From an uncultured Desulfobulbaceae bacterium (GTDB lineage: Bacteria; Desulfobacterota; Desulfobulbia; Desulfobulbales; BM004), in NCBI GenBank assembly GCA_945787325.1, contig CALZHP010000004.1, forward strand, positions 2,262 to 66,261: a stretch of DNA of 64,000 nucleotides. The letters are read 5' to 3'. Numbering within the stretch: position 1 is the stretch's first letter; each line of letters opens with the position of its first letter. This document shows, in pieces, positions 989 to 57,245 of the stretch. The notes under the pieces were generated by a model. That model made no database searches. It was not told the origin of the DNA and saw nothing but the letters and a program-made list of their open reading frames with translations. Position numbers and translations under genes: made by a program.

Positions 989-1499
989 ACATAATCAATT
1001 GTAAAATTTAATAACGAACCGTCCAAATGTTTTTAATACTGGGATAATATGTGATGGTCCACTGCCCGGACAGTATGTGCATATTAATCGATTTCCCGCA
1101 TGACTAATGTTGATAAGGCTTAACCTGAAACTGTAAAACTTTCTGACAGTAGTTGTTGGTATGCATTTGTTCTGCGGTTCGATATATAATTAGATCTCCA
1201 GCTCTGTTAATGAACAGTCAACACAGGTTTCTTTTGTTTCAGTTATTTCTTAATCTTCACTAAGTTGTTGTAAAATTGTTTTTTTTAAATATGCTCACAG
1301 GGATATAAGTGTATTCCATTTTTCAAAACAAACAGGCCATGTCGACGAAATAGACCTGTCAGTTTTTTTTACACCGGCAGAATTGGCGGTATAGAATTCA
1401 AAATAAAATTTAGTTTATCAATAAATGTTCTAAATCTCATAGCCCATCAATAGCGTGTTTAGAAAGATATTATATGGTTTTCTTGATTACATGGTCAAC

Positions 1500-1514
1500 T
1501 GGCACATCAATTGC
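1500..1514 (+). promoter_or_regulatory. sigma-54 (-24/-12) promoter of PEP-CTERM gene 1
   Basis: TGGCAC-atcaa-TTGC matches the GG-N10-GC consensus exactly. It lies about 85 nt upstream of the ATG at 1598. Confidence 0.75.
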
Positions 1515-1597
1515 TACTCAATCTTTAAATATTGAACAATTAGATATTGCTTTTAAATATATTTAAGGACGAAATAATAACAAATGGAGATAAAACC

Positions 1598-2149
1598 ATG
1601 AAAAAGAAACTTTTTACAGGATTGGTAACCGGGATGTTCCTGGCAGGCATGGTTAGCATGGCGAATGCAAACATCATTGATATGTTTGGATATATTAATG
1701 AAAGCCATAATGTAGATTACCAATATTTTAGTCTTGATACAGCTGGATCGGTAACAGTTGTTATGGAAACATTTGATGCTCAATTTGATCCAGTAATGTA
1801 TCTCTTCCAAGATGATGGATCCTTAGATAGTTCTGATTTAATTGATTCAAATGATGATGGGGGGAGCACTCCAGCAGCAACATTCCGAAATTCATTGATC
1901 ATGCAACCCTTAGCTGCAGGAAACTATCTCACTGCTGTCTCGAGTTTTTTATTTTCTCTAGATGAAGCCATTAGCGGAGTGAACGGTGTTGAATATATTA
2001 ATGATGGCTCATATCGTTTAAATATAATGTCTTCTCAAACATTAACATCAAGATCAGGCTCTGTCCCCGAACCAGCCACCATGCTGCTGATGGGTACCGG
2101 TCTTGTAGGGCTGGCAATTACACGTCGCAGAAAAGCTAATAAAAAATAA
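1598..2149 (+). CDS. PEP-CTERM sorting-domain secreted protein 1
   Basis: Signal peptide MKKKLFTGLVTGMFLAGMVSMANA. The C-terminus VPEPATMLLMGTGLVGLAITRRRKANKK gives the PEP motif, a TM helix and a basic tail. A GGAG sits upstream of the ATG. The ORF-track start at 1547 is an upstream TTG. Confidence 0.9.
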   Translation: MKKKLFTGLVTGMFLAGMVSMANANIIDMFGYINESHNVDYQYFSLDTAGSVTVVMETFDAQFDPVMYLFQDDGSLDSSDLIDSNDDGGSTPAATFRNSLIMQPLAAGNYLTAVSSFLFSLDEAISGVNGVEYINDGSYRLNIMSSQTLTSRSGSVPEPATMLLMGTGLVGLAITRRRKANKK

Positions 2150-2200
2150 AGCGCGACACTTGTTAGCTTTAATGAGCTAACAAGACGAAATCTCTAAAAA

Positions 2201-2234
2201 GCCTGAATCGGAAAACTCCGATTCAGGCTTTTTT
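2201..2234 (+). terminator. intrinsic terminator
   Basis: GCCTGAATCGG-aaaact-CCGATTCAGGC followed by TTTTTTG. The same stem recurs at 6814. Confidence 0.8.
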
Positions 2235-2340
2235 GTGTTAGTTGAGCTTTATTTGTCAAGCAGATTGACAACTTTTAAAAAGATTTCGGTTTGATAAAGT
2301 ATTGGATCAAGAGCTTAAAATGAGTGTCGAAATAATATTC

Positions 2341-2719
2341 TCATTCCCTTCGACGCATTGAGATATTCTGAAAATTCAACTGATTATCAGATGTTGTTAT
2401 TATCGGTACAGACTCTATCCGTGGATTATCACCAAAAAGTATACAGATTTCAGTTGCATTGACTGCTAACTTTTTTTCACCAAATATCGGAAAGAAAGAC
2501 CGCTCTTGCTGATATCAACTACTTGAATTAGTGCCGGTTATGGCCTGTTTGATTTATACGATAATTCGCTCCTTTTCCGAAAAACGTGTATGAACCTTTG
2601 GCTCGTAGATTTCCTTCCATCTCCATACGCCCACCTCTAGAACCTGGGAATCCCCTTACACAATAAAAATGAAATTTCCCATAAACGGGGATCGCAATTA
2701 ACCCGATAAAACTTGTCAT
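2341..2719 (-). pseudogene. decayed PilZ-domain paralogue (copy A)
   Basis: The C-terminal half reads NATEICILFGDNPRIESVPIITTSDNQLNFQNISMRRRE*. The N-terminal half (VDISKSGLSFRYL) lies in another frame, with the shift in an A-run. Both are clearly homologous to the intact PilZ gene at 6968..7342. Confidence 0.7.
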
Positions 2720-3119
2720 CTTGTAATAAAGAATTTATTTGAAAAACTAAGATTTTTCGACACCTTAATTATGCAGTAAAAGAAACCCCAGGAAGGATCA
2801 ATACTTCTAATTATTGAAATCTCCATTTATTCTAAAGACTTAAAGGTTGGACACGTACAATTTTCTTCTGGCGATGATTATATCGAAAACCTCAGTATTG
2901 AGGAGGTTCATACGGAGAAAGATAAGCAGAGACTTCTTGCGTTGCAGTATGCGCTGGTTCAGTCTGAGAAACCCTGTGTACAAAAGGCACTTGCCATGAC
3001 GAGAAAAATACCAACTAGACAGACAAACTGCTTGTCAACATTCGCCTTAAGTCTATAGTCTGAAAGAACTAATCAAAGAACACAAGGTCGACTATCTTAG
3101 AAAAATAGCCAAACAACAA

Positions 3120-3979
3120 ATGATAATGTCATTTTCACAGAAACAAACTTTAACCACTATTGCGGGTACCACTCACTTTGCAAGTCAATGGACTGTAAGC
3201 ATCATTTTATTGTCTGTTATTCTCAGTAGTTCACTCCCCCTGACAGCCGCCGCAGCCAGGTCGGCCGAAGATATTTTGGTGGTTTATAACTCGGCTATAC
3301 TGGCCAGCCAAGAGGTTGCAGAACACTATAAAAAAAAAGAAAAATACCTCCGGAAAACGTGCTGGGCCTTTCCCTTCCTGATGCAGAGCAGATCTCCCGA
3401 CAGGAGTATGATCTGGAACTTGTAAAACCTCTCAGGGCACATATTCAAAAGCTCAGGGCAAAGGGCAGTAAGCCTGTCATTCTGCTGGTCTACGGTATCC
3501 CACTAATAATAAGAGAAGAAGCCGGCCAAGAGGGAAAAGCATCTGACAAGACCTCGGTTGCGGTGGACAGCGAACTTAACTTGATCCTGGATTACCGCTA
3601 TCCGAAGGCCGTCTGACTGCCCAACATGTTTCTCCCCAAATTCCACTCCCTGCCGGAGATCGAGGCCATCCGGTATAATTTAATAATGGTAGCAAGAATC
3701 GACGGACCGACACCGGCCATTGCCAAACGCCTGGTCGACGATGCTATAACAGTTGAAGAGAAGGGGTGACCGCCAACCTGGGTCCAGTACAGGAGCCATA
3801 TCTACAATCCTTCCCTCTGCCCGATGTCTTCTTCCCACTCCTGATGAGCGGACGGCTTCCCTTGGTAGAAGGTCTATTACAACAGCATCCCCAACCTTTC
3901 CTGGAGGCAAGTCCTAATCGGCCACCCGCTTTACACGCCATTTAATAACAAACCAGCCATTGATGAACCGTCAGAGTAA
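3120..3979 (+). pseudogene. decayed secreted protein gene (TIGR03790-like family, name recalled from memory)
   Basis: Signal peptide plus ILVVYNS..EVAEHYKKK, then a frameshift in an A9 tract (3330-3338) into KKRKIPPENVLGLSLPD. There are in-frame TGA codons at 3614 and 3767, and later stops. The original C-terminus GHPLYTPF is still readable near 3917-3979. Confidence 0.65.
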
Positions 3980-4307
3980 TTCTCTTTTACATTCAAGAAA
4001 TCCCAAGGAGCTGTTACAAAATATGCTGAGTGACGATGTGGATACCTTACTCCTGATGGACCCTTTATAACTCCTGAAGTTATCAACAGGGCATAATAAA
4101 ATTCAATACATTACGGGCGCATCACCAGTTCGAATCCGGCTTTTACGCGCCCGAAGGAAGAACCCCTGGAGTGATGCCGACAAAATATGTAATCGAGTAT
4201 TTCCACAGTGATACCTAGTCAAACTGTCAGCCAATCAACAAATAAACGATATCCATAGGTCAAGTGTAAAATATTCTGACATCAACTGTTTTACCTGTGG
4301 CAGCGAC

Positions 4308-4340
4308 AAAAAAATCCCCTGCACCGAAGTACAAGGGATT
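4308..4340 (-). terminator. intrinsic terminator of PEP-CTERM gene 2
   Basis: The minus-strand RNA forms CCCUUGUAC-UUCG-GUGCAGGGG followed by a U7 run. Confidence 0.7.
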
Positions 4341-4364
4341 TAATGATACTATAAAAAAATCAGA

Positions 4365-5093
4365 TTAAGATTTGTTGGATTTTTTTCTGCGGGCCGCGGC
4401 AAGACCAACCAGACCGGTACCGAAGAGAAGCATGGTGGAAGGCTCAGGTACAGAGTTAGATGTAGATTCGTAAGCAACCGCGACTTGTCCGGGAGACGGG
4501 TTGGCATAAGTTACCAGCGCAGTTCCTCCGGTTATACCACCTACATAATTACCACTAAAACTGGTCACGCCGGCCATCAGCGGATCAGCAGCAATGCTCA
4601 CAAGACCAGTAGATGCTACGCCGCCAACATTGAAAGACATTGAGCTGCCAAGATAGGACAGGATTCCGTTGGCATTATTATTGATAGTGTCATAAATTGG
4701 TCCTTCTCCGATTACAACAAGATTGCCACCACCGTCTATAAAAGTCGAAAGCAGTGCAAGTTCAGTAGCGCTCCAGGCGTCATTGGTAGAGGCAACAACC
4801 CACTCCATGTCAACCAAAGCACTCGCAGACATGGCTCCAGAAGAAAAATTGCCACCATTAGCACCGATACGGCTTGACCAGTTGGTAAGAGTCCAATTAC
4901 TGGATGCTGTTCGTCCAAATACGTCATCCCCATTAAAAAGGTTGCTGAAAAACTGATCATTTATGCTACTACCAATATTACTGTCAGCAACGCTAATGAT
5001 GTTTGCGTTCACGCTAGACACCGAAAATATTAACATAGTAGTGATTACTACCAGCATCAATGAAAGCGGTTGGGTTTTTCTTAGTTGGATCAT
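4365..5093 (-). CDS. PEP-CTERM sorting-domain secreted protein 2
   Basis: Signal peptide ending SVNA. The C-terminus is VPEPSTMLLFGTGLVGLAAARRKKSNKS. A strong AAGGAGG RBS precedes the ATG. Confidence 0.9.
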   Translation of the reverse strand: MIQLRKTQPLSLMLVVITTMLIFSVSSVNANIISVADSNIGSSINDQFFSNLFNGDDVFGRTASSNWTLTNWSSRIGANGGNFSSGAMSASALVDMEWVVASTNDAWSATELALLSTFIDGGGNLVVIGEGPIYDTINNNANGILSYLGSSMSFNVGGVASTGLVSIAADPLMAGVTSFSGNYVGGITGGTALVTYANPSPGQVAVAYESTSNSVPEPSTMLLFGTGLVGLAAARRKKSNKS

Positions 5094-5162
5094 GGTGTCC
5101 TCCTTATTATTTTAAATTTTACCAATTTTTTACCAATTTAAATTAAATTATGTCATTTTAAT

Positions 5163-5177
5163 GCATCAAACATGCCA
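5163..5177 (-). promoter_or_regulatory. sigma-54 (-24/-12) promoter of PEP-CTERM gene 2
   Basis: The minus strand reads TGGCAT-gtttg-ATGC, with GG-N10-GC spacing preserved. It lies about 70 nt upstream of the ATG at 5093. Confidence 0.6.
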
Positions 5178-5301
5178 GAATTGTAACATGCCGATTTGCC
5201 TGGATAATTCAAGATATGCATTTAGTTGACTAGCAAAATTGGAAATATTTCCGACACCCAGATACAAACCATGATTATTTGCTTCCTTCTATAATATTGT
5301 G

Positions 5302-5660
5302 TTATTTTGATATGTTAGGCACGTCTCCTATGAAGCAGTTTAAATATATCTCGTATTTTACCAAAACGGGCCCAAATTTGGTGTCGAAATATTTTACACA
5401 TCCCCTTCTACGCATGGAGATATTCTCAAAATTCAATTGATTATCAGATGTTGTTTTCATCGGCACAGACTCAATCCATGGGTTATCACCTAGAAGTCTA
5501 CAGATTTCAGTTGCATTGCCTGCCATCTTTTCTTAACCAAGATACCGGAAAGAAAGTCCACCCTAACTGATATCAATAACATGATACATGGCACCGGTTG
5601 TACTTTGACCCACTAAAACAGTTTTTCGCTTCTTAACCGAAAACAGTGCACAGATTTATA
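5302..5660 (-). pseudogene. decayed PilZ-domain paralogue (copy B)
   Basis: Reads SVKKRKTVLVGQSTTGAMYHVIDIS*GGLSFRYLG*EKMAGNATEICRLLGDNPWIESVPMKTTSDNQLNFENISMRRRG. There are two in-frame stops relative to the intact copy. The native C-terminal roughly 20 codons are deleted and replaced by read-through. Confidence 0.75.
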
Positions 5661-5912
5661 TCTCAGGATTTTTTCCGTCCTACAAGATATCTATTTAAAA
5701 AATACAGGAACTTTGTCACAGTAAGCTTGGCAATTTTCACTGTACTGGATTTGCACAGTTAAGCTGACAAACACTTATTCTGCTGATTAATAAAGCATAA
5801 CACTTAATTACATTTCTCCACGAAACATCCAGATGTGGATTTTTTCAAAATATTTCCTGAGATAAAGTTACATTTTCAGGAAAATACTTACTTATATGAT
5901 GATTTTTTTCGG

Positions 5913-5938
5913 ATATCTGTAATTCAAATTACAGATAT
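5913..5938. promoter_or_regulatory. perfect 12-bp inverted repeat, candidate enhancer (UAS) or operator
   Basis: ATATCTGTAATT-ca-AATTACAGATAT, located about 115-140 nt upstream of the sigma-54 promoter at 6051. Confidence 0.3.
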
Positions 5939-6050
5939 ATGAAAATAAAATGTCCGTGTTTTTTACAACAGCATTAAATGGTATGCTTTACACCTCGTCA
6001 TTAGCGTGATTACAGACTATTCAATAATTTTATTATCTCTTAATTGGAAA

Positions 6051-6066
6051 TGGCATAGTATATGCT
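6051..6066 (+). promoter_or_regulatory. sigma-54 (-24/-12) promoter of PEP-CTERM gene 3
   Basis: TGGCAT-agtat-ATGCT, with GG-N10-GC spacing preserved. It lies about 75 nt upstream of the ATG at 6142. Confidence 0.6.
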
Positions 6067-6141
6067 TAATAATGAACACATATATAATTTGAGATATTTT
6101 ATTTATGATATTGGTAAGCTAATAAAAATTTGGGGATACAG

Positions 6142-6762
6142 ATGAAGAAGGCAATGATTAGTTTAACTTCCATGTTTTTGGTAGTTGGCTTGATTGGAGT
6201 TGCAAATGCGACGTTGATCAATTTCGATTTTACCGGCGGTGACAATACATGGAATACAGACAGTGCAATTTTTACAGGTGATGACGGTTCAACAAGGACT
6301 CGAGCTACTGCTATTCCTTCCAGCAGTAGAAACCTTTATTTAGGTCAAGATGGTCTTGGTGTCTACGGTTTTCGTGACAGCGCTGAATATGATGATGCGC
6401 AAGTCGATGGATATCAAATTAATGAATGGATTAATTTTGACTTTCGTAGTCCTGTCAGATTGGTTTCAGCAAGTTTTAGTCATGTTGGCTCCAACGATGA
6501 TTTTGCCTTTTATGCCAATGGTAGATATTTCCAAAGTACAGACATCCCAAATAGTCATACATATACGTTCCAACAGACATGGATATCGAGTCGCTTTTGG
6601 ATCGGTGCAGTTGCTGATAACGATGATTTTTTCATATCAGGTATACAAATTGACGATGGTGCACATGGTGCCCCTGTTCCCGAACCAGCCACTATGATGC
6701 TGATGGGCACAGGTCTTGCCGGTCTAGCGTTCTCCCGTCGTAAAAAAGCAAATAAAGCGTAA
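6142..6762 (+). CDS. PEP-CTERM sorting-domain secreted protein 3
   Basis: Signal peptide MKKAMISLTSMFLVVGLIGVANA. The C-terminus is VPEPATMMLMGTGLAGLAFSRRKKANKA. The ORF-track start at 6130 is an upstream TTG. Confidence 0.9.
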   Translation: MKKAMISLTSMFLVVGLIGVANATLINFDFTGGDNTWNTDSAIFTGDDGSTRTRATAIPSSSRNLYLGQDGLGVYGFRDSAEYDDAQVDGYQINEWINFDFRSPVRLVSASFSHVGSNDDFAFYANGRYFQSTDIPNSHTYTFQQTWISSRFWIGAVADNDDFFISGIQIDDGAHGAPVPEPATMMLMGTGLAGLAFSRRKKANKA

Positions 6763-6813
6763 TGAATGAAATGAGTTGGCAATACTGAGATGACTTAAAT
6801 ATTCAAAGATAAA

Positions 6814-6847
6814 GCCTGAATCGGAGTAATCCGATTCAGGCTTTTTT
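6814..6847 (+). terminator. intrinsic terminator (paralogous to the one at 2201)
   Basis: GCCTGAATCGG-agtaat-CCGATTCAGGC followed by TTTTTT. Confidence 0.8.
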
Positions 6848-6967
6848 CATATATATTGTAAGATTTTTGGGATAGTCCAATCGATATTCAGCTTTGGGTA
6901 TGGTTGTGATCCGTTTTGTTCTCAAATTTAAAGGTGGCACGTGTGTCAAAATATTTTACACATCCCT

Positions 6968-7342
6968 TTATGTGTCTACCCTTTGCATAAATTCCTCAAG
7001 CTGAGACTTCTGAGCGGAGGTAAGTGAATCGAACTGTAATCCCCTCCGACGCATGGAGATATTGTCAATATTAAAGTGAATATCAGACGTGGTTTTTATC
7101 GGAACCTTCTCCAACCATATATTGTCATTAAGAAGAATGCTAAGTTCACTCACATTGTTAGCCAACTCTTGCTCACCAAGATATCGGAAAGCAAGACCGA
7201 CCTTGCTGATATCAACAACATGATAAAGGGCACCGGTTGTCTTTTGGCCTACTAAAACAAGAATACGCTTCTTTACAGACAAGCGTTTATGGGCCCTTCT
7301 TTCATTGATTTGTTTATTAGCTTCCACAATACCCCCCTTCAT
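6968..7342 (-). CDS. PilZ-domain protein (c-di-GMP receptor family), the intact copy
   Basis: Both PilZ motifs are present: an RxxxR-type ERRAHKR and DISKVGLAF (D/NxSxxG). Confidence 0.8.
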   Translation of the reverse strand: MKGGIVEANKQINERRAHKRLSVKKRILVLVGQKTTGALYHVVDISKVGLAFRYLGEQELANNVSELSILLNDNIWLEKVPIKTTSDIHFNIDNISMRRRGLQFDSLTSAQKSQLEEFMQRVDT

Positions 7343-7721
7343 ATCAGGAAATATGATGCATTCACAACAAACATTGTGCCCATCAACGGGGATTTATAAT
7401 ATTACATTATATCATCGGCACATTACTGCCCGCCCTATGCCTTTTATAATTGCCCGATTGAGATAGACACCCTTACAGGTTACTCTTTTCAGTACCCCAT
7501 AGAGGTATAAATATCGACTTCGAGTACCCATGGGTAATGCCCGCAAATTCCCTTTCTAAAAGTTTAGTTCCAACACCTCAAAACTTTTCATGCAATAATA
7601 TTGCCAGTCATTTATCAGGCTGATATTATTGAATATAACTTATCGAAAACTTAATTTAATTTATGAGGCATAATTCATGTGTAAATATTTCTGACACTAG
7701 TTAACGATTTAGATATAAATC

Positions 7722-8112
7722 GTTGGCGTAGAACGCAGGGCTTAGGGCGCAAGGTCTATAAAATGAAAATTGAATAAATAAATGGCGTAAGGCTTAAGGC
7801 ATAGGGCGTAAGGCAGAATATTGAATATTGAAAAATGAATAATTGGGAGTTAAAGGTGTAGTATCCTGATAACATTCCACTAATATTAGGTACATGCCAT
7901 TTTACAATTCCCCCCTAAACCCTATGCCTTTTATTTATTCAATATTGTCCGCCTCACGCAAAAACGCTCCGCCGAAAGGTATCAAGCCTATACAAAATTT
8001 AATCTCACTTGCCCCGTTAATAACAACGCAACTTTACGTTATTGTAGCAATCTGCAATTTTCAATATTCAATATTCAATTTTCATTATAAAGGCCCTACG
8101 CCATTTAATTAT
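7722..8112. repeat. mosaic of short dispersed repeat modules in both orientations
   Basis: Modules seen: AATATTGAATATTGAA (7817-7832) and its reverse complement (8060-8076); GGCGTA(A/G)GGC (7784, 7805) and its reverse complement GCCCTACGCC (8093); CCTATGCCTTTTA (7435, 7921); ATGAAAATTGAATA (7763) and its reverse complement (8075). Confidence 0.7.
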
Positions 8113-8119
8113 CCATTCT

Positions 8120-10201
8120 TCATTCGTCATTTACAGCCGGTATCTCTACCACAAACCTGGCACCGCCTTCTTCATTATTCCCCGCAGCAATATTGCAGCC
8201 CAGGCTTTCAATAAGCCCTCTCACCTGCCAAAGACCGATGCCGCTGCCCTTAGATTTGGAGGTTTTAAACGGTTCAAATAATCCATCCGGCAGAAGTTCG
8301 GACGGTATACCCGGCCCGTTATCTGTGATTTTAAGTTCTATTATTTCAGTTGTTTTCGGAGCTGCATGAATCCTAACCGAAGTTCCGGCGCCTCCTGCCT
8401 CCAGAGAATTGAGCAGGATATTCTCAAGGATACTTGAAAATATTTCCGGGTCAGTGGTTATCTTCGTTGTATATTTGCACTTCAGATCAACCGTCAGTTC
8501 AGGGAGTTTGCGACCAAGCTTGCCAATGCAGTCTTTCAAAAATTTGCAGAGGACTAATTCCTGCCATTCTGGTGTAATTTCTCCTTTAAGCGAATGCAGG
8601 CGGTTTTGCACTTTGGCCATTCTTTTCAAAGCATCGTCCATCGATTCCAGGAGATCCTGCTGAAACACGGGATTATTGATATGCGCCGGAGCGTTTTCCC
8701 GGGCAAGAGACAGCATGGTGGCCGCGTTTTTAATATCATGGAGGACATAAGCGGAGAGGTTTTCCCAGGCGGATTGCTCGCGGGTATGGGCCAGTTCTTC
8801 GGCCATCCGGGTGGCCAGAAGTGCAGAAGCAGCCTGGGAACCCAGGGCGGCTAGAAGATCGAAATCATCGTGCCCGTAGATTCCACCGGAAAACTCCGGG
8901 CCAAGCCCGATATAACCGACACATTGTTCACCAATTGCCAGGGGCACCAGCAGGACAATTCCAGATGTATCTAAAAACACATGCTCCAGCGTGGCTAATT
9001 CATTTACTGCTTTATCATAATTGGAATCAGCCACATAAAAATGATCGTTTTCTTTAAGATGCAGTACAAGTGGATTGTCAGGGTCCAGGTTAATGTTGGG
9101 CGTTTCGGCAAACCCTTGGTCCCTGAAGGGTTTGTACCCTTGCTGGGCATCTCCAAGCCAGATCTTGATATCAGTCGTATAGAGGCTGTCGGCCAATACC
9201 TGGCGCAATGCGGCGACAACACCTTTTTCACTCAATTCTCCCTGCAGAAGAGAAGAGAATGCAAGCCATTCATCCCTGTACTCGTATTTATTCACATAAA
9301 AATTGGTGCTGATAAAATATTTCACCCGATGACGCACTTTGCCTGATAGCGAAAATATTAAAATCAGCAGTATGCCAATGATAATCAGCAGCCACTGCAG
9401 AATAAAGGGCAGAGACAATCCATAAGCCCGTATTATGAAAGAGACAATACCCACAAAAAAGAGATATGCGCCAAAGACGAGCGGCGCAATTGTCGAATAC
9501 ACAACCTTACGAGATACAAATACCTTGCGATTAAGCAATCTATGGCGGACGATGCCATACACCATCATAGACCAGGCGATCAGTAAAATAACGGACAGCA
9601 ACTGAAAGTGGCGAGGTACCAGTCGCAGATAGGTAATCCGATAGGAAGATGACCAGGCAAAGGTGCCGCTTAAAAGAAAAAAGCCGATGACTACAAATTT
9701 ATACTCCCATCGTCCTTTTAAAGTCAGTGCCCTCCAGAAAGACTCCAGATACCAGGCCAATCTAAGGGCGGCGACAAGCAATAGCAAGGAAGAAAAATAC
9801 AACAGTCCGTATTGAGGGAGGATTATCATATCTTCAACACGGTCATACACCGGCTGGCTGTACACCCAGAAACCGCCCGTACCAAATACGACGGCCGCAA
9901 GTACAACAATTATCATAATAAAAAGATTCGGCTTCTGAGCAGCAGGATTAATAGTATATTGCATCCTGTATGCCATGATAATTATGAGCAGGGAATATAC
10001 ATTTTCAGAAAATACAAGGGAGGGAATCGACTGATCCTGCAGGTGAAAGGAGAAATAGACATATTCCCCGCCAAGCAGCGTTACACTCAATAAGATTCGC
10101 ACCAGCCCGAAGGAAAATTGACGTTCCGCTTCTTTCACCCTCAGATCAAGTAAACATGAAAGCAACAGCGTAAGATTCAGGATGTAAAAAAGTGCAGTCA
10201 T
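8120..10201 (-). CDS. prsK: PEP-CTERM-system-type sensor histidine kinase (PrsK-like)
   Basis: 693 aa. It has a roughly 300-aa polytopic N-terminal membrane domain, a central GAF-like region, an H-box (LHDIKNAATML) and HATPase motifs (LNSLEAG, DNGPGIP, GSGIGLW). The architecture and size match the PrsK family, recalled from memory. Confidence 0.8.
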   Translation of the reverse strand: MTALFYILNLTLLLSCLLDLRVKEAERQFSFGLVRILLSVTLLGGEYVYFSFHLQDQSIPSLVFSENVYSLLIIIMAYRMQYTINPAAQKPNLFIMIIVVLAAVVFGTGGFWVYSQPVYDRVEDMIILPQYGLLYFSSLLLLVAALRLAWYLESFWRALTLKGRWEYKFVVIGFFLLSGTFAWSSSYRITYLRLVPRHFQLLSVILLIAWSMMVYGIVRHRLLNRKVFVSRKVVYSTIAPLVFGAYLFFVGIVSFIIRAYGLSLPFILQWLLIIIGILLILIFSLSGKVRHRVKYFISTNFYVNKYEYRDEWLAFSSLLQGELSEKGVVAALRQVLADSLYTTDIKIWLGDAQQGYKPFRDQGFAETPNINLDPDNPLVLHLKENDHFYVADSNYDKAVNELATLEHVFLDTSGIVLLVPLAIGEQCVGYIGLGPEFSGGIYGHDDFDLLAALGSQAASALLATRMAEELAHTREQSAWENLSAYVLHDIKNAATMLSLARENAPAHINNPVFQQDLLESMDDALKRMAKVQNRLHSLKGEITPEWQELVLCKFLKDCIGKLGRKLPELTVDLKCKYTTKITTDPEIFSSILENILLNSLEAGGAGTSVRIHAAPKTTEIIELKITDNGPGIPSELLPDGLFEPFKTSKSKGSGIGLWQVRGLIESLGCNIAAGNNEEGGARFVVEIPAVNDE

Positions 10202-13019: not shown

Positions 13020-13186
13020 AACTTTGAAATTTTCATACTTCTATCTGTCACTGTTATCCAAAATGAAATGCCCAAGGAAACCGATTCTTTGCTACCGCCT
13101 ACAGATAAAGCATTTATATAATATTCACTTACAATAAAACAATATCTATCGCCATAGAATATTTCAGAATTACCGGATTTGAATGT

Positions 13187-13828
13187 TCACAATACGCTCT
13201 TTTCTCCAATAAGCTGCTTTACTTCACGCAAAACATCATGATGTATTTCGTCAATGGTGCGAACAGCATCTATTCTTTTAATATAATCACCATCCAGATT
13301 GTCAAACAGCTCGGATACTTTCTGCAGGGCCTCCTCCTGCTCAAAGCTATTCAGGGACTCTCCCCTCAACTCCTGTATACGGTGGATGCCAAGGGTTGGT
13401 GGCGCTACGAATATCAGCGCCAGATCAGGGCGCGGAGCAAAATTCTCATTGAGCTGTAAAATCTCTACCGGGTTAAGCCCTGCAGCTCCCTGGTAGGCCA
13501 CTGTCGAAAGATAATAACGATCCGTTAGAACAATTTTTCCCTCGGCAAGCGCCGGAGCAATTACTTCATTTACATGCTGTTTCCGGTCTGCCATGAACAG
13601 TTCCAACTCCTCTTCTCTTGAAACACTGGTCCTGTTGACAAAAAGCTCCCTGATCCTCTGCCCGAAAGGTCCATCTGTCGGTTCAAATGTTGTTACTACC
13701 TCATACCCCATACCGGTCAGTTTTTCTGAAAGCAAACGTATCTGAGTTGATTTTCCTGTACCGTCAATACCTTCGAATGCTATCAAAAGACCCGCGTTCC
13801 ACACGCCGTTACTATTAGTAATACTCAT
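13187..13828 (-). CDS. tmk: thymidylate kinase
   Basis: P-loop FEGIDGTGKSTQ and a DRY motif (TDRYYLST). Confidence 0.92.
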   Translation of the reverse strand: MSITNSNGVWNAGLLIAFEGIDGTGKSTQIRLLSEKLTGMGYEVVTTFEPTDGPFGQRIRELFVNRTSVSREEELELFMADRKQHVNEVIAPALAEGKIVLTDRYYLSTVAYQGAAGLNPVEILQLNENFAPRPDLALIFVAPPTLGIHRIQELRGESLNSFEQEEALQKVSELFDNLDGDYIKRIDAVRTIDEIHHDVLREVKQLIGEKSVL

Positions 13829-57094: not shown

Positions 57095-57245
57095 TTTTTC
57101 TCATTAAATATTCATTATTGAATCTTCAATATTCAATATTTAGCAATCATTTTTCAATTTCTATTCCATATGCCATGCGCCCAGAGTCTTATGCCTTTTA
57201 ATTTTTCATTATTCAATAGTCATTATTCATTCAATATTCTCGATC
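57095..57245. repeat. second locus of the dispersed short-repeat family seen at 7722-8112
   Basis: TTCAATATTCAATATT (57125-57140), a TATGCCTTTTA module near 57190, and TTCATTATTCAATA-type modules. Confidence 0.6.

Follow-up and report, generated by a model that had tools for sequence, protein, structure and literature searches.

How do three dissimilar secreted-protein genes come to lie between two regulator genes, and do they answer to those regulators? The question is posed by region 989-8119 of the window (the whole stretch of DNA analyzed, 64 kb). With a probability of roughly 0.85, the sequence points to a regulatory locus of the PrsK/PrsR (XrtA-type PEP-CTERM) kind in an uncultured Desulfobacterales-like bacterium, with this region as its cargo slot, operating by the mechanism proposed below.

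Regulators, cargo genes and the layout of the locus

The genes of the locus and the cargo terminators are as follows.

2-988, + strand: truncated prsR (its 3' two-thirds, with the sigma-54 AAA+ domain and a Fis-type HTH), top family TIGR02915
1598-2149, + strand: cargo A, 183-aa PEP-CTERM protein with a DVUA0089/PPC-like domain (NF038127, TIGR02595, PF07589)
2196-2233, + strand: intrinsic terminator of cargo A (17-bp stem, then T-run)
4312-4341, - strand: intrinsic terminator of cargo B
5093-4365, - strand: cargo B, 242-aa PEP-CTERM protein (PF07589 35.2, TIGR02595 29.0)
6142-6762, + strand: cargo C, 206-aa PEP-CTERM protein (PF07589 36.4, TIGR02595 27.1)
6811-6844, + strand: intrinsic terminator of cargo C
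6968-7342, - strand: intact single-domain PilZ gene, 124 aa (PF07238 25.4, cut-off 22.5)
8120-10201, - strand: prsK, XrtA/PEP-CTERM-system histidine kinase (TIGR02916)
11347-10442, - strand: DUF4292 protein (PF14125 28.4), upstream of prsK on the same strand
13019-11289, - strand: TPR protein of 576 aa, upstream of prsK on the same strand

The prsR ORF (2-988) is cut at the window edge, and its receiver domain lies beyond the window. Its top family match is TIGR02915 (PrsR; 401.6 bits, model positions 122-444), it carries the domains Sigma54_activat (PF00158), AAA_lid_14 (PF25601) and HTH_8 (PF02954), and it is 58-81% identical to those prsR genes of relatives that are convergent to prsK. ORF 10201-8120 scores 325.2 bits against TIGR02916 (PrsK; cut-off 300), with HATPase_c above its cut-off and weak, sub-threshold GAF matches. 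The TPR protein falls below the PrsT cut-off: TIGR02917 is its best NCBIfam match, at 171 against a cut-off of 312. Between the truncated prsR and prsK there are three intact PEP-CTERM genes and the one intact PilZ gene. Family matches and coordinates thus agree with an earlier note on this DNA, which had placed cargo genes between prsR-like and prsK-like regulators.

That note had also described the cargo as three unrelated proteins with only a signal peptide and a tail in common, and the proteins bear this out. All three ORFs pass the cut-offs of PF07589 and TIGR02595 (for cargo A, NF038127 scores 54.2 with cut-off 29, TIGR02595 29.2 with cut-off 16, and PF07589 33.4 with cut-off 20.7), their N-termini are signal-peptide-like and end in ANA or VNA, and the tail VPEP[AS]TM[LM]L[MF]GTGL.GLA..RR.K.NK fits each of them; cargo-versus-cargo tblastn confines the likeness to the last ~22-33 residues. 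Cargo B probably has a GIFT/DUF4350-like alpha/beta domain: there is a weak sequence match to the IFT52 N-terminal domain and a fold match (E = 2e-3) from a low-confidence model, and PF14258 is on record for its homologue P0003 (67% identity). Cargo C is modeled with an all-beta AF2 core (pLDDT ~65-90), suggesting a beta-sandwich resembling a carbohydrate-binding module; its best Foldseek matches are CBM32, discoidin and CBM35 (E = 7e-4 to 1e-2, with low TM-scores). Each cargo gene is followed by a strong terminator, that of cargo A being 92-94% identical to that of cargo C. As the note had reported, no exosortase gene was found, here among window ORFs of ≥120 aa. Since neither xrtA nor rpoN lies within the 64 kb, the downstream machinery is assumed to be present outside it.

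Is the region a horizontally acquired island that split a formerly adjacent prsK-prsR pair? Its GC content is below that of the flanks (38.8% vs. 43.5%), its cargo domains have almost no relatives, the closest homologue of cargo B (67% identity) comes from a gammaproteobacterial Sedimenticola MAG, and cargo domains of the slot are highly diverse across loci (49 proteins in 30 BLAST clusters). However, convergent prsK and prsR with an occupied gap are the ancestral state of the clade. The two genes are convergent in 41/44 informative loci, and the gap measures 0.9-7.0 kb in 31 of those 41, nearly always with one or more PEP-CTERM genes inside; of the 41, at least 28 have a PEP-CTERM gene in the gap. 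The earlier premise that these regulators are usually adjacent, which would make a 7-kb convergent layout unusual, therefore fails in this clade. The closest relative, L001, already has the order prsK-pilZ-cargo-prsR with equal motif spacings, and a search for an integrase, a transposase or a tRNA gene found none. The description of the DNA as AT-richer stands, but not as the mark of an insert: intact genes make up only 32% of the region, other intergenic regions of the window have 30-40% GC, and this low coding density, from long regulatory regions and pseudogenes, fully accounts for the GC deficit. The low GC is a matter of coding density, not of foreign DNA. Individual cargo genes may have moved horizontally, but an acquired island is quite unlikely, and we keep to the resident cargo slot. 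Within the clade, the window has the largest and most rearranged prsK/prsR gap.

Predicted sigma-54 promoters and PrsR sites

Each cargo gene is preceded by a -24/-12 element and by one or two copies of a second motif, motif 1 (TGTCGGAATTTTTTACA), which was rebuilt from 80 related Desulfobacterales loci.

1132-1148, - strand: motif 1, inverted distal, promoter A, CTGTCAGAAAGTTTTACAG; 19.4 bits, 208 nt from the proximal site
1357-1373, + strand: motif 1, proximal, promoter A, TGTCAGTTTTTTTTACA; 21.9 bits, 126 nt before TGG
1500-1514, + strand: -24/-12 element of cargo A, TGGCAC-ATCAA-TTGC; 14.9 bits, 83 nt before ATG
5177-5163, - strand: -24/-12 element of cargo B, TGGCAT-GTTTG-ATGC; 14.6 bits, 69 nt before ATG
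5240-5256, - strand: motif 1, proximal, promoter B, TGTCGGAAATATTTCCA; 16.7 bits, canonical 62 nt before TGG
5382-5398, + strand: motif 1, inverted distal, promoter B; 24.2 bits, canonical 125 nt from the proximal site
5951-5967, + strand: motif 1, proximal, promoter C, TGTCCGTGTTTTTTACA; 16.3 bits, 83 nt before TGG
6051-6065, + strand: -24/-12 element of cargo C, TGGCAT-AGTAT-ATGC; 16.5 bits, 76 nt before ATG

The earlier claim of a -24/-12 element 65-85 nt before each cargo ATG holds at the positions given; our distances (83, 69 and 76 nt) are counted from the element end. The -12 variant ATGC of cargo B and C, in place of TTGC, is found in 1 of the 30 relatives' boxes used for the PWMs.

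Motif 1 has the form TGTCGG-N7-TTACA, that is, TGT-N11-ACA. The upstream activator sequence of NifA is TGT-N10-ACA. The likeness to NtrC/NifA-type promoters extends to a dyad-like TGT...ACA sequence in multiple sites, to a fixed helical relation with the -24/-12 element, and to an activator of the AAA+ class that carries a Fis-type HTH. Motif 1 differs in its N11 spacing with an asymmetric TGTCGG half, and its proximal copy sits unusually near the promoter, separated from the -24 TGG by a rigid 62 nt.

With a PWM derived from the related loci only, the top eight matches in the 64 kb (16.3-24.2 bits) all fall within 1132-7696, inside the slot, and the ninth reaches 12.3 bits. At an 8-bit threshold the region has 13 matches, where dinucleotide shuffles give 1.8 +/- 1.3. 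A strong proximal site is present at every cargo promoter. We found 45 bipartite boxes, 36 of them directly before PEP-CTERM ORFs; the spacer from motif 1 to the sigma-54 element is 59-64 nt in 40/45, and an inverted distal motif 1 is present in 33/45, at a modal distance of 125 nt. By the same PWM, the cargo B homologue of Sedimenticola is also preceded by a box. Promoter B has the exact 125/62 spacing, whereas the spacers of promoter A (126 nt) and promoter C (83 nt) lie outside the clade's rigid 59-64 nt. Promoter A could be weakened or use a different looping geometry, since its spacer exceeds the 92-nt maximum of Haft et al. (PMC1569441).

Might motif 1 instead be bound by another sigma-54 activator, the prsK/prsR-cargo neighborhood being synteny without direct regulation? 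NtrC-type activators are numerous in Desulfobacterales, and the assignment of motif 1 to PrsR is itself a prediction. However, the phylogenetic profile of the element matches those of PrsK, PrsR and PrsT only (PMC1569441), all eight strong motif-1 sites of the 64 kb lie between prsR and prsK, and motif 1 is associated with prsK/prsR in dozens of genomes. Another activator is thus a very remote prospect. The predicted PrsR site at every promoter and the recurrence of the arrangement in these genomes lend support to the PrsK/PrsR-to-sigma-54 cargo regulon that the earlier note had suggested.

The strict pattern TGGCAY-N5-WTGC occurs four times in the 64 kb, where 0.69 is expected (~6-fold), and three of the four are correctly placed cargo promoters. 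The fourth (9975-9961, - strand) we take as coincidence because it lies inside the prsK coding sequence, in the codons of the conserved peptide IMAYRMQY, with no motif 1 upstream. Across the 80 related loci and the window, 28/47 PEP-CTERM ORFs have the strict motif within 250 nt upstream, compared with 7/1664 other ORFs (Fisher p = 5e-42); in relatives it is ~140-fold enriched before PEP-CTERM ORFs. That the -24/-12 matches are chance in AT-rich intergenic DNA, with the cargo served by ordinary sigma-70 promoters, is hardly credible: the region has 24 sigma-70-like hexamer pairs throughout and the prsK match is clearly fortuitous, but the hexamer pairs are no more frequent than in shuffles (23.6 +/- 5), whereas the sigma-54 pattern shows both enrichments above and keeps a fixed distance of 62 nt from a second conserved motif.

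The PilZ gene and the debris of the slot

The earlier note did not mention pilZ with its box, the PilZ pseudogenes (two copies), the pseudogene of the TIGR03790 family or five of the motif-1 sites, two of which are the distal sites given above. The remaining features of the slot are these.

2324-2340, + strand: degenerate version of the motif 1 found after every PilZ copy (repeat family D3)
2347-2616, - strand: PilZ pseudogene copy 1 (tblastn 44% identity, PilZ residues 10-100)
3120-3950, + strand: TIGR03790-family pseudogene (conceptual translation 102.5 bits, cut-off 67)
4265-4281, - strand: orphan motif 1 past the cargo B terminator; 20.3 bits
5401-5643, - strand: PilZ pseudogene copy 2 (tblastn 64% identity, PilZ residues 21-101)
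6944-6960, + strand: orphan motif 1 directly after the pilZ stop; 19.8 bits
7591-7606, - strand: candidate sigma-54 element of pilZ, TGGCAA-TATTA-TTGC; 14.9 bits, ~250 nt before ATG
7680-7696, - strand: motif 1 of the pilZ box; 17.2 bits, 73 nt before TGG
7715-8125: nested inverted repeats of heptamer arrays (GGCGTAA, GAATATT/CAATATT), an insertion separating the pilZ box from the prsK stop

The PilZ translation contains the c-di-GMP-binding motifs RxxxR (R16-R20) and DxSxxG (D44-G49), and orthologues are present in L001, L029, L045, L049 and L070. From its own box, pilZ appears to be a member of the PrsK/PrsR regulon. The candidate promoter has A at -21; upstream of pilZ in L001 there is TGGCAG-N5-TTGC with motif 1 at the identical 73-nt spacing, and the L029 box has a 61-nt spacer. 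The bipartite box is found in only 3 of the 6 genomes with this PilZ.

PilZ copy 1 has no intact ORF, and its DNA is 85% identical to copy 2. The TIGR03790 pseudogene matches the model over positions 2-165 of 316; its reading frame shifts near 3335 and is broken by in-frame stops, and its C-terminal half has decayed. The D3 copy at 2324-2340 has 81% identity with 5381-5407. The orphan at 4265-4281 is part of a 29-nt inverted repeat with 5378-5406 and has no usable -24/-12 element downstream. The 19-mer at 5382-5398 (the site plus one flanking base on each side) also follows pilZ in L001. In L001 and in module B, a co-directional cargo promoter has its distal site at the position after pilZ; the site at 6944-6960 would be orphaned because cargo C is inverted. 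The slot probably grew when a [cargo tail - terminator - motif 1 - pilZ] module was duplicated and inverted and then decayed, which would account for the two PilZ pseudogenes, the TIGR03790 pseudogene and the orphan motif-1 sites. The heptamer repeats at 7715-8125 were not found in the 80 related loci; related sequence occurs at 57106-57231.

Known systems and the proposed mechanism

The bipartite "PEP-CTERM box" was first described by Haft, Paulsen, Ward and Selengut (2006, BMC Biol 4:29; PMC1569441): motif 1, 17 nt long with TTTACA at its end, is separated by 62.8 +/- 10.6 nt from a sigma-54 -24/-12 motif, and the ATG follows after another 71 nt. The present locus shares the single-gene PEP-CTERM operons with large upstream regions, the diverse cargo with only signal peptide and tail in common, the 17-nt motif 1 with terminal TTTACA ~62 nt before a -24/-12 element that itself precedes the ATG by ~70-80 nt, and nearby PrsK (TIGR02916) and PrsR (TIGR02915). 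It differs in its convergent prsK/prsR with cargo between them (in tandem in 12/13 of the 2006 genome set), in having no protein at the PrsT cut-off in the window, with the exosortase and EPS locus outside view, and in the atypical spacers of two of its three cargo genes (83 and 126 nt). Moreover, this clade has a second, inverted motif 1 at a fixed ~125 nt, and the PilZ gene of the window carries a box.

Experimental evidence comes from Aquincola tertiaricarbonis RN12, where transcription of pepA is RpoN1-dependent with its start mapped behind TGGCAC/CTGCTT, and where a prsK transposon mutant is floc-deficient (PMC9850573; BMC Microbiol 2023;23:20). Related floc-formation work in Zoogloea enters here as far as it is cited in PMC9850573. 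Both systems have a PEP-CTERM gene with a sigma-54 promoter and a predicted upstream enhancer, and prsK is needed for the Aquincola phenotype. Aquincola belongs to the betaproteobacteria, has prsK and prsR in tandem next to EPS genes, and was studied by experiment, whereas our locus is known from its sequence.

Given the architecture, family memberships, and statistical and comparative support established above, the cargo slot would work as follows. Each PEP-CTERM gene would be a single-gene operon running from motif 1 through the sigma-54 promoter, a 5' UTR of ~55-70 nt with a Shine-Dalgarno sequence and the gene to an intrinsic terminator. An envelope or matrix signal would act through PrsK to yield phosphorylated PrsR, whose oligomers would bind the motif-1 sites, reach the sigma-54 holoenzyme by DNA looping and open the promoter by ATP hydrolysis; we infer that the cargo of this organism depends on RpoN and PrsK/PrsR. 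The proteins would be exported through Sec, and an exosortase from elsewhere in the genome would process them at the PEP-CTERM tail, so that they are displayed in the exopolysaccharide matrix. The single-domain PilZ, probably a c-di-GMP-binding protein given its intact motifs, would belong to the same regulon.

Because single-gene PEP-CTERM operons and the bipartite element were already described in 2006 (PMC1569441), the cargo/box arrangement is a rediscovery: a textbook case of the PEP-CTERM box in a new bacterial lineage. To this the locus makes modest additions, namely the distal inverted motif 1 ~125 nt upstream of the proximal site, conserved in the clade; pilZ with its predicted box, also seen in two relatives; and the two PilZ pseudogenes and the TIGR03790 pseudogene.

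PEP-CTERM genes between convergent prsR and prsK

The 7,131 nt between the prsR stop codon and prsK (the island) hold four intact genes in the ORF map: three encoding candidate PEP-CTERM proteins (cargo A, B, and C) and a pilZ gene.

Genes of the island and its flanks
left window edge to stop at 988, +: sigma-54 activator gene, prsR (ORF map, raw sequence)
1598-2149, +: cargo A
5093-4365, -: cargo B
6142-6762, +: cargo C
7342-6968, -: intact pilZ, 124 aa; PF07238 25.4 against a cut-off of 22.5
10201-8120, -: histidine kinase gene, prsK (ORF map)
11347-10442, -: DUF4292 protein (ORF map)
13019-11289, -: TPR protein, 576 aa (ORF map)

The prsK product scores 325.2 bits with the NCBIfam model TIGR02916 (cut-off 300) over model positions 67-679 of 679. 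For the prsR ORF, TIGR02915 is the top model among 27 families, with 401.6 bits over positions 122-444; the full-length cut-off of 502.6 is not reached because the window does not include the receiver domain (positions 1-121). The Pfam domains of the activator are Sigma54_activat, AAA_lid_14, and HTH_8. As a comparison sample, we assembled 80 loci around PrsK homologues of 41-68% identity, from Desulfobacterales and other Thermodesulfobacteriota, mostly MAGs, and including Desulfonema magnum, Desulfosarcina variabilis, Desulfatitalea alkaliphila, and Desulfopila. The window prsR is 58-81% identical to the prsR of relatives in which it is convergent with prsK, supporting orthology.

The TPR protein has some resemblance to PrsT but was rejected as such: it scores 171.4 bits with TIGR02917 against a cut-off of 312.2, and has 576 aa against 899 model positions. 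A true PrsT may be encoded elsewhere. The other 51 kb of the window is housekeeping, including tmk, pdxA, rnhB, rimM, ffh, fabD, lspA, ileS, ftsEX, copA, lpxR, and the mraZ-to-ftsZ dcw cluster. Family searches of the ORFs found neither an exosortase (EpsH/XrtA), as the earlier note had stated, nor EPS biosynthesis genes within the 64-kb window, from which rpoN is also absent. A CPBP intramembrane protease of the TIGR03008 'pepcterm_CAAX' family adjoins prsR or prsK in 23 of the 80 relatives (for example, a 227-aa protein at 13047-13730 of locus L031, 195 bits against a cut-off of 81); there is no trace of this gene anywhere in the window.

The earlier note had taken the three cargo ORFs for PEP-CTERM proteins on the strength of a common tail pattern; all three do show it and lie above both family cut-offs: 29.2, 29.0, and 27.1 bits for A, B, and C with TIGR02595 (cut-off 16), and 33.4, 35.2, and 36.4 with PF07589 (cut-off 20.7). 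Their predicted N termini have basic residues, then a hydrophobic stretch, and then a putative ANA or VNA site. It had also been claimed that they share nothing but this signal-like segment and the tail, in keeping with a mutual tblastn similarity limited to the last ~22-33 residues. Cargo A can tentatively be placed in the DVUA0089 family (NF038127, 54 bits; cut-off 29), with a weak match to the PPC pre-peptidase C-terminal domain as well. Cargo B has a weak sequence match to the IFT52 N-terminal (GIFT) domain (E = 0.033); the top PDB matches of its low-confidence AF2 model (pLDDT 52, core 60-80) are 5fms (IFT52-N) and folds of class I glutamine amidotransferases, and a homologue at 67% identity carries PF14258. 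The sequence of cargo C found no match in the PDB, and its all-beta AF2 model (core pLDDT ~65-90) resembles the carbohydrate-binding modules CBM32, discoidin, and CBM35 with low TM-scores. The fold assignments of B and C, which come from models of low to moderate confidence, are tentative. As is typical of PEP-CTERM proteins, the three cargo products appear to be small binding modules without enzymatic activity.

BLAST clustering sorts the mature domains of 49 slot-associated PEP-CTERM proteins into 30 groups, in which the three from the window are all singletons. In a set of 5.8 billion proteins, cargo B is found with three other clusters and cargo C with one. The sole named homologue of cargo B, 67% identical, is from a gammaproteobacterial Sedimenticola MAG (GCA_040507105.1). 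Another homologue (P0004, 58% identity) has a VPDSG-CTERM rather than a PEP-CTERM tail.

The insert had been described as AT-richer, and its GC content is 38.8% versus 43.5% elsewhere; other intergenic regions of the window have 30-40%. The low value is explained by a coding density of 32%. No tRNA gene, Rfam family, or mobility gene was found in the island; the Rfam search for riboswitches or sRNAs, which also covered the 250-nt pilZ leader, returned only two sub-threshold chance matches, both on the cargo A terminator.

Sigma-54 elements and predicted PrsR sites

Haft et al. (2006; PMC1569441) reported that single-gene operons with long upstream regions account for >65% of PEP-CTERM genes. 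The proteobacterial upstream regions contain a 17-nt motif 1, which has TTTACA at its end and is "sometimes repeated," and a 17-nt motif 2, which fits the sigma-54 -24/-12 consensus and lies on average 71 nt from the start codon; the two are separated by 62.8 +/- 10.6 nt (range 32-92). Only three proteins, named PrsK, PrsR, and PrsT, have a phylogenetic profile that matches that of this DNA element (PMC1569441). In Aquincola, pepA is RpoN1-dependent and its mapped transcription start lies behind TGGCAC/CTGCTT; transposon insertion in prsK abolishes floc formation (PMC9850573).

Promoter elements in the island (motif 1, predicted PrsR site; motif 2, sigma-54 element; both together, a box)
Promoter A: motif 1 at 1357-1373, +; 126-nt spacer, outside the published range of 32-92; TGGCAC-N5-TTGC ending 83 nt before the ATG
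Promoter B: motif 1 at 5256-5240, -; 62-nt spacer, canonical and within that range; TGGCAT-N5-ATGC ending 69 nt before the ATG
Promoter C: motif 1 at 5951-5967, +; 83-nt spacer, inside that range; TGGCAT-N5-ATGC ending 76 nt before the ATG
pilZ: motif 1 at 7696-7680, -, 17.2 bits; sigma-54 candidate TGGCAA-TATTA-TTGC at 7606-7592, -, 14.9 bits, 73 nt after motif 1

The pattern TGGCAY-N5-WTGC occurs four times in the 64 kb, against 0.69 expected. Three of these strict copies stand 69-83 nt before the ATGs of the cargo genes, so that the -24/-12 elements the earlier note had read ahead of each gene hold up. The fourth, 9975-9961 (-), TGGCATACAGGATGC, was rejected as a promoter: it falls on conserved prsK codons (IMAYRMQY), has no motif 1 upstream, and is probably a coding coincidence. 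In the 80 loci plus the window, the strict pattern lies <=250 nt upstream of 28 of the 47 PEP-CTERM ORFs and of only 7 of 1,664 other ORFs of >=100 aa (Fisher p = 5e-42). The island shows no enrichment of sigma-70-like promoters. A strong terminator, consisting of a hairpin and a T-run, lies after every cargo gene, making each a single-gene operon. The 5' UTR of cargo B contains a perfect 11-nt tandem duplication at 5117-5139 (TTTTACCAATT x2.1).

Alignment of the DNA upstream of the relatives' sigma-54 matches reveals a motif 1 of sequence TGTCGGAATTTTTTACA, of the form TGT-N11-ACA. Position weight matrices for both motifs were built from 30 boxes, all from the related loci. The eight top motif-1 matches of the whole window, at 16.3-24.2 bits (training range, 13.3-27.2), all lie within 1132-7696, and the next best anywhere in the window reaches 12.3 bits. 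With a threshold of 8 bits, the island has 13 matches, compared with 1.8 +/- 1.3 in its dinucleotide shuffles. The cargo sites, TGTCAGTTTTTTTTACA (A), TGTCCGTGTTTTTTACA (C), and the one-base variant TGTCGGAAATATTTCCA (B), score 16.3-21.9 bits and agree with the published description of 17 nt with TTTACA at the end; the sigma-54 elements of A-C, with ends 83, 69, and 76 nt before the ATG, likewise agree with motif 2, published as GG at -24 and GC at -12 at ~71 nt from the start.

The same matrix finds a box, with a 65-nt spacer, before the Sedimenticola homologue of cargo B, which identifies the element as that of Haft et al. rather than a look-alike restricted to this clade. This homologue (5850-6702 of L081, the Sedimenticola locus) lies by itself in a flagellar cluster, flanked by flhB-like and fliJ genes, and has a motif 1 and sigma-54 box of its own; a motif 1 is also found upstream of the following gene (7147-7728). 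Joint transfer of cargo B and its promoter from or to Sedimenticola is unsupported, as the upstream DNA can be aligned only at the motifs. The earlier reading of the island as a sigma-54 cargo regulon is correct, but the system is of a known kind, in a new lineage.

Layout and promoter geometry among relatives

Of the 44 loci in which prsR could be placed, 41 have it downstream of prsK and on the other strand. The gap between them is 24-187 bp in 10 loci and 0.87-7.0 kb in 31, and at least 28 of these 31 long gaps contain one or more PEP-CTERM ORFs. Convergent prsK and prsR with cargo between them is therefore the normal state of the clade, of which the window slot, with 7,131 nt and three cargo genes, is the largest instance. 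Cultured bacteria that share the layout are Desulfosarcina variabilis, Desulfatitalea alkaliphila, and Desulfopila sp. IMCC35006.

Bipartite boxes directly precede PEP-CTERM ORFs in 36 of 45 cases, and most of the others precede truncated or variant-tail ORFs. The spacer from motif 1 to the TGG is 59-64 nt in 40 of the 45; the five deviant spacers are 51, 73, 83, 126, and 138 nt. In four of these five, the difference from 62 nt comes within 0.1 turn of an integral number of helical turns (post hoc p ~0.007), which fits a face-of-helix dependence, a reading of our own from few spacer variants. An inverted motif 1 lies upstream of the proximal one in 33 of the 45 boxes, with a modal gap of 125 nt (121-128 nt in 19), and a handful have a third motif 1, in direct orientation, ~290-305 nt upstream. 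Whereas Haft et al. describe motif 1 merely as "sometimes repeated," this clade has a fixed inverted distal site, for which we infer a role from few genomes. The distal and proximal spacings are exactly 125 and 62 nt in promoter B and expanded to 208 and 126 nt in promoter A; promoter C has the proximal motif 1 only. Just upstream of the latter, at 5903-5948, is a near-perfect palindrome with 22-nt arms (TTTTTTTCGGATATCTGTAATT / AATTACAGATATATGAAAATAA). Many relatives share a conserved ATTACA ~55 nt upstream of motif 1.

The pilZ gene, slot history, and the PrsK/PrsR circuit

The product of the intact pilZ exceeds the PF07238 gathering score and has, in translation, both motifs expected of PilZ c-di-GMP receptors, RxxxR (R16-AHK-R20) and [D/N]xSxxG (D44-ISKV-G49). 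Its candidate sigma-54 element lies ~250 nt before the ATG. In the closest relative (L001), prsK is followed by motif 1, 73 nt, TGGCAG-N5-TTGC, and pilZ, and then by an inverted motif 1, 124 nt, motif 1, 62 nt, a sigma-54 element, and a PEP-CTERM gene; prsR closes the order in the opposite direction. When one flanking base is included on either side, the site after the pilZ stop in L001 is identical over 19 nt to window 5381-5399. A second relative (L029) also has a box before its PilZ gene. This type of PilZ adjoins prsK in only 5 of the 80 relatives, and a literature search found no paper tying PilZ to PEP-CTERM systems. These boxes, from few genomes, suggest that pilZ belongs to the PrsR/sigma-54 regulon.

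Decayed genes and repeats in the island
2616-2347, -: decayed pilZ copy, 44% aa identity, same strand as the intact gene
5643-5401, -: decayed pilZ copy, 64% aa identity, same strand as the intact gene
3120-3950: TIGR03790-family gene, frameshifted and truncated, 102.5 bits against a cut-off of 67
7715-8125: nested inverted-repeat block of heptamers, 410 nt, between the prsK stop and the pilZ box

Modules A and C, meaning cargo genes A and C with their surroundings, have in common the tail-coding DNA (~80% identity), a near-identical terminator, the post-pilZ motif 1, and a PilZ copy. Their cargo is inverted relative to L001, whereas module B keeps the L001 arrangement. From these shared parts and the inverted cargo, it follows that the slot grew by inversion and duplication, followed by decay. 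The mid-island TIGR03790 pseudogene has no tblastn homologue in the 80 related loci. A 29-nt inverted repeat (4257-4285 / 5378-5406, 79% complementary), with a motif 1 in both arms, brackets the whole cargo B module of terminator, gene, and promoter. In relatives, brackets of this kind are uncommon (5 of 43), and that cargo modules might be invertible cassettes bounded by inverted motif 1 is a low-probability speculation.

The heptamer block (GGCGTAA x4.4, GAATATT x3.7, CAATATT x4.9) comes directly after the prsK stop, which its right arm overlaps, and has no counterpart in the 80 related loci. Between copA and the CoA-disulfide-reductase gene, at 57106-57231, there is related AT-heptamer and 'TATGCCTTTT' sequence. 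The repeat may be a small genome-specific or MITE-like family.

For a locus whose architecture, family memberships, statistics, and conservation were observed directly, the established PrsK/PrsR-sigma-54-PEP-CTERM model is the best supported. PrsK would phosphorylate PrsR, which would assemble on motif-1 sites and activate sigma-54 holoenzyme at each box; Sec would export the cargo products, and an exosortase encoded elsewhere would sort them. PrsR binding, RpoN dependence, and cargo sorting are drawn from family knowledge and two papers. What is unusual here is quantitative: the slot is the largest, it contains three cargo genes, and spacers are atypical. The boxed PilZ, the fixed inverted distal site, and the clade-wide prsK/prsR convergence are minor additions.

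A more specific proposal for the Desulfobacterales goes beyond this model. The convergent prsK-prsR gap may be a dedicated, fast-turnover expression slot; the PrsR enhancer may be rigid and multi-site, with a prsK-proximal site and, 125 nt upstream of a promoter-proximal site, an inverted one; the promoter-proximal site may lie exactly 61-64 nt from the -24 element, or depart from this by whole helical turns; unrelated PEP-CTERM cargo may be swapped, duplicated, and inverted behind the enhancer by recombination at conserved box, tail, and terminator sequences; and in one sub-lineage, a PrsR/sigma-54-controlled PilZ may couple c-di-GMP signalling to PEP-CTERM/exosortase matrix assembly. As one joint claim, we regard this as rather unlikely.

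The locus does not overturn current understanding of the system. The established circuit nonetheless gains, in relatives of sulfate reducers, a group absent from the 2006 genome set, a clean example that can be read from sequence. The motif-1 and motif-2 matrices identify regulon members nearly free of background, which should make the entire PrsR regulon of any Desulfobacterales genome predictable. The natural spacers of 62, 73, 83, and 126 nt and the inverted distal site are ready constructs for work on the contact between activator and sigma-54, and the boxed pilZ suggests a link from c-di-GMP to exosortase-dependent matrix proteins.
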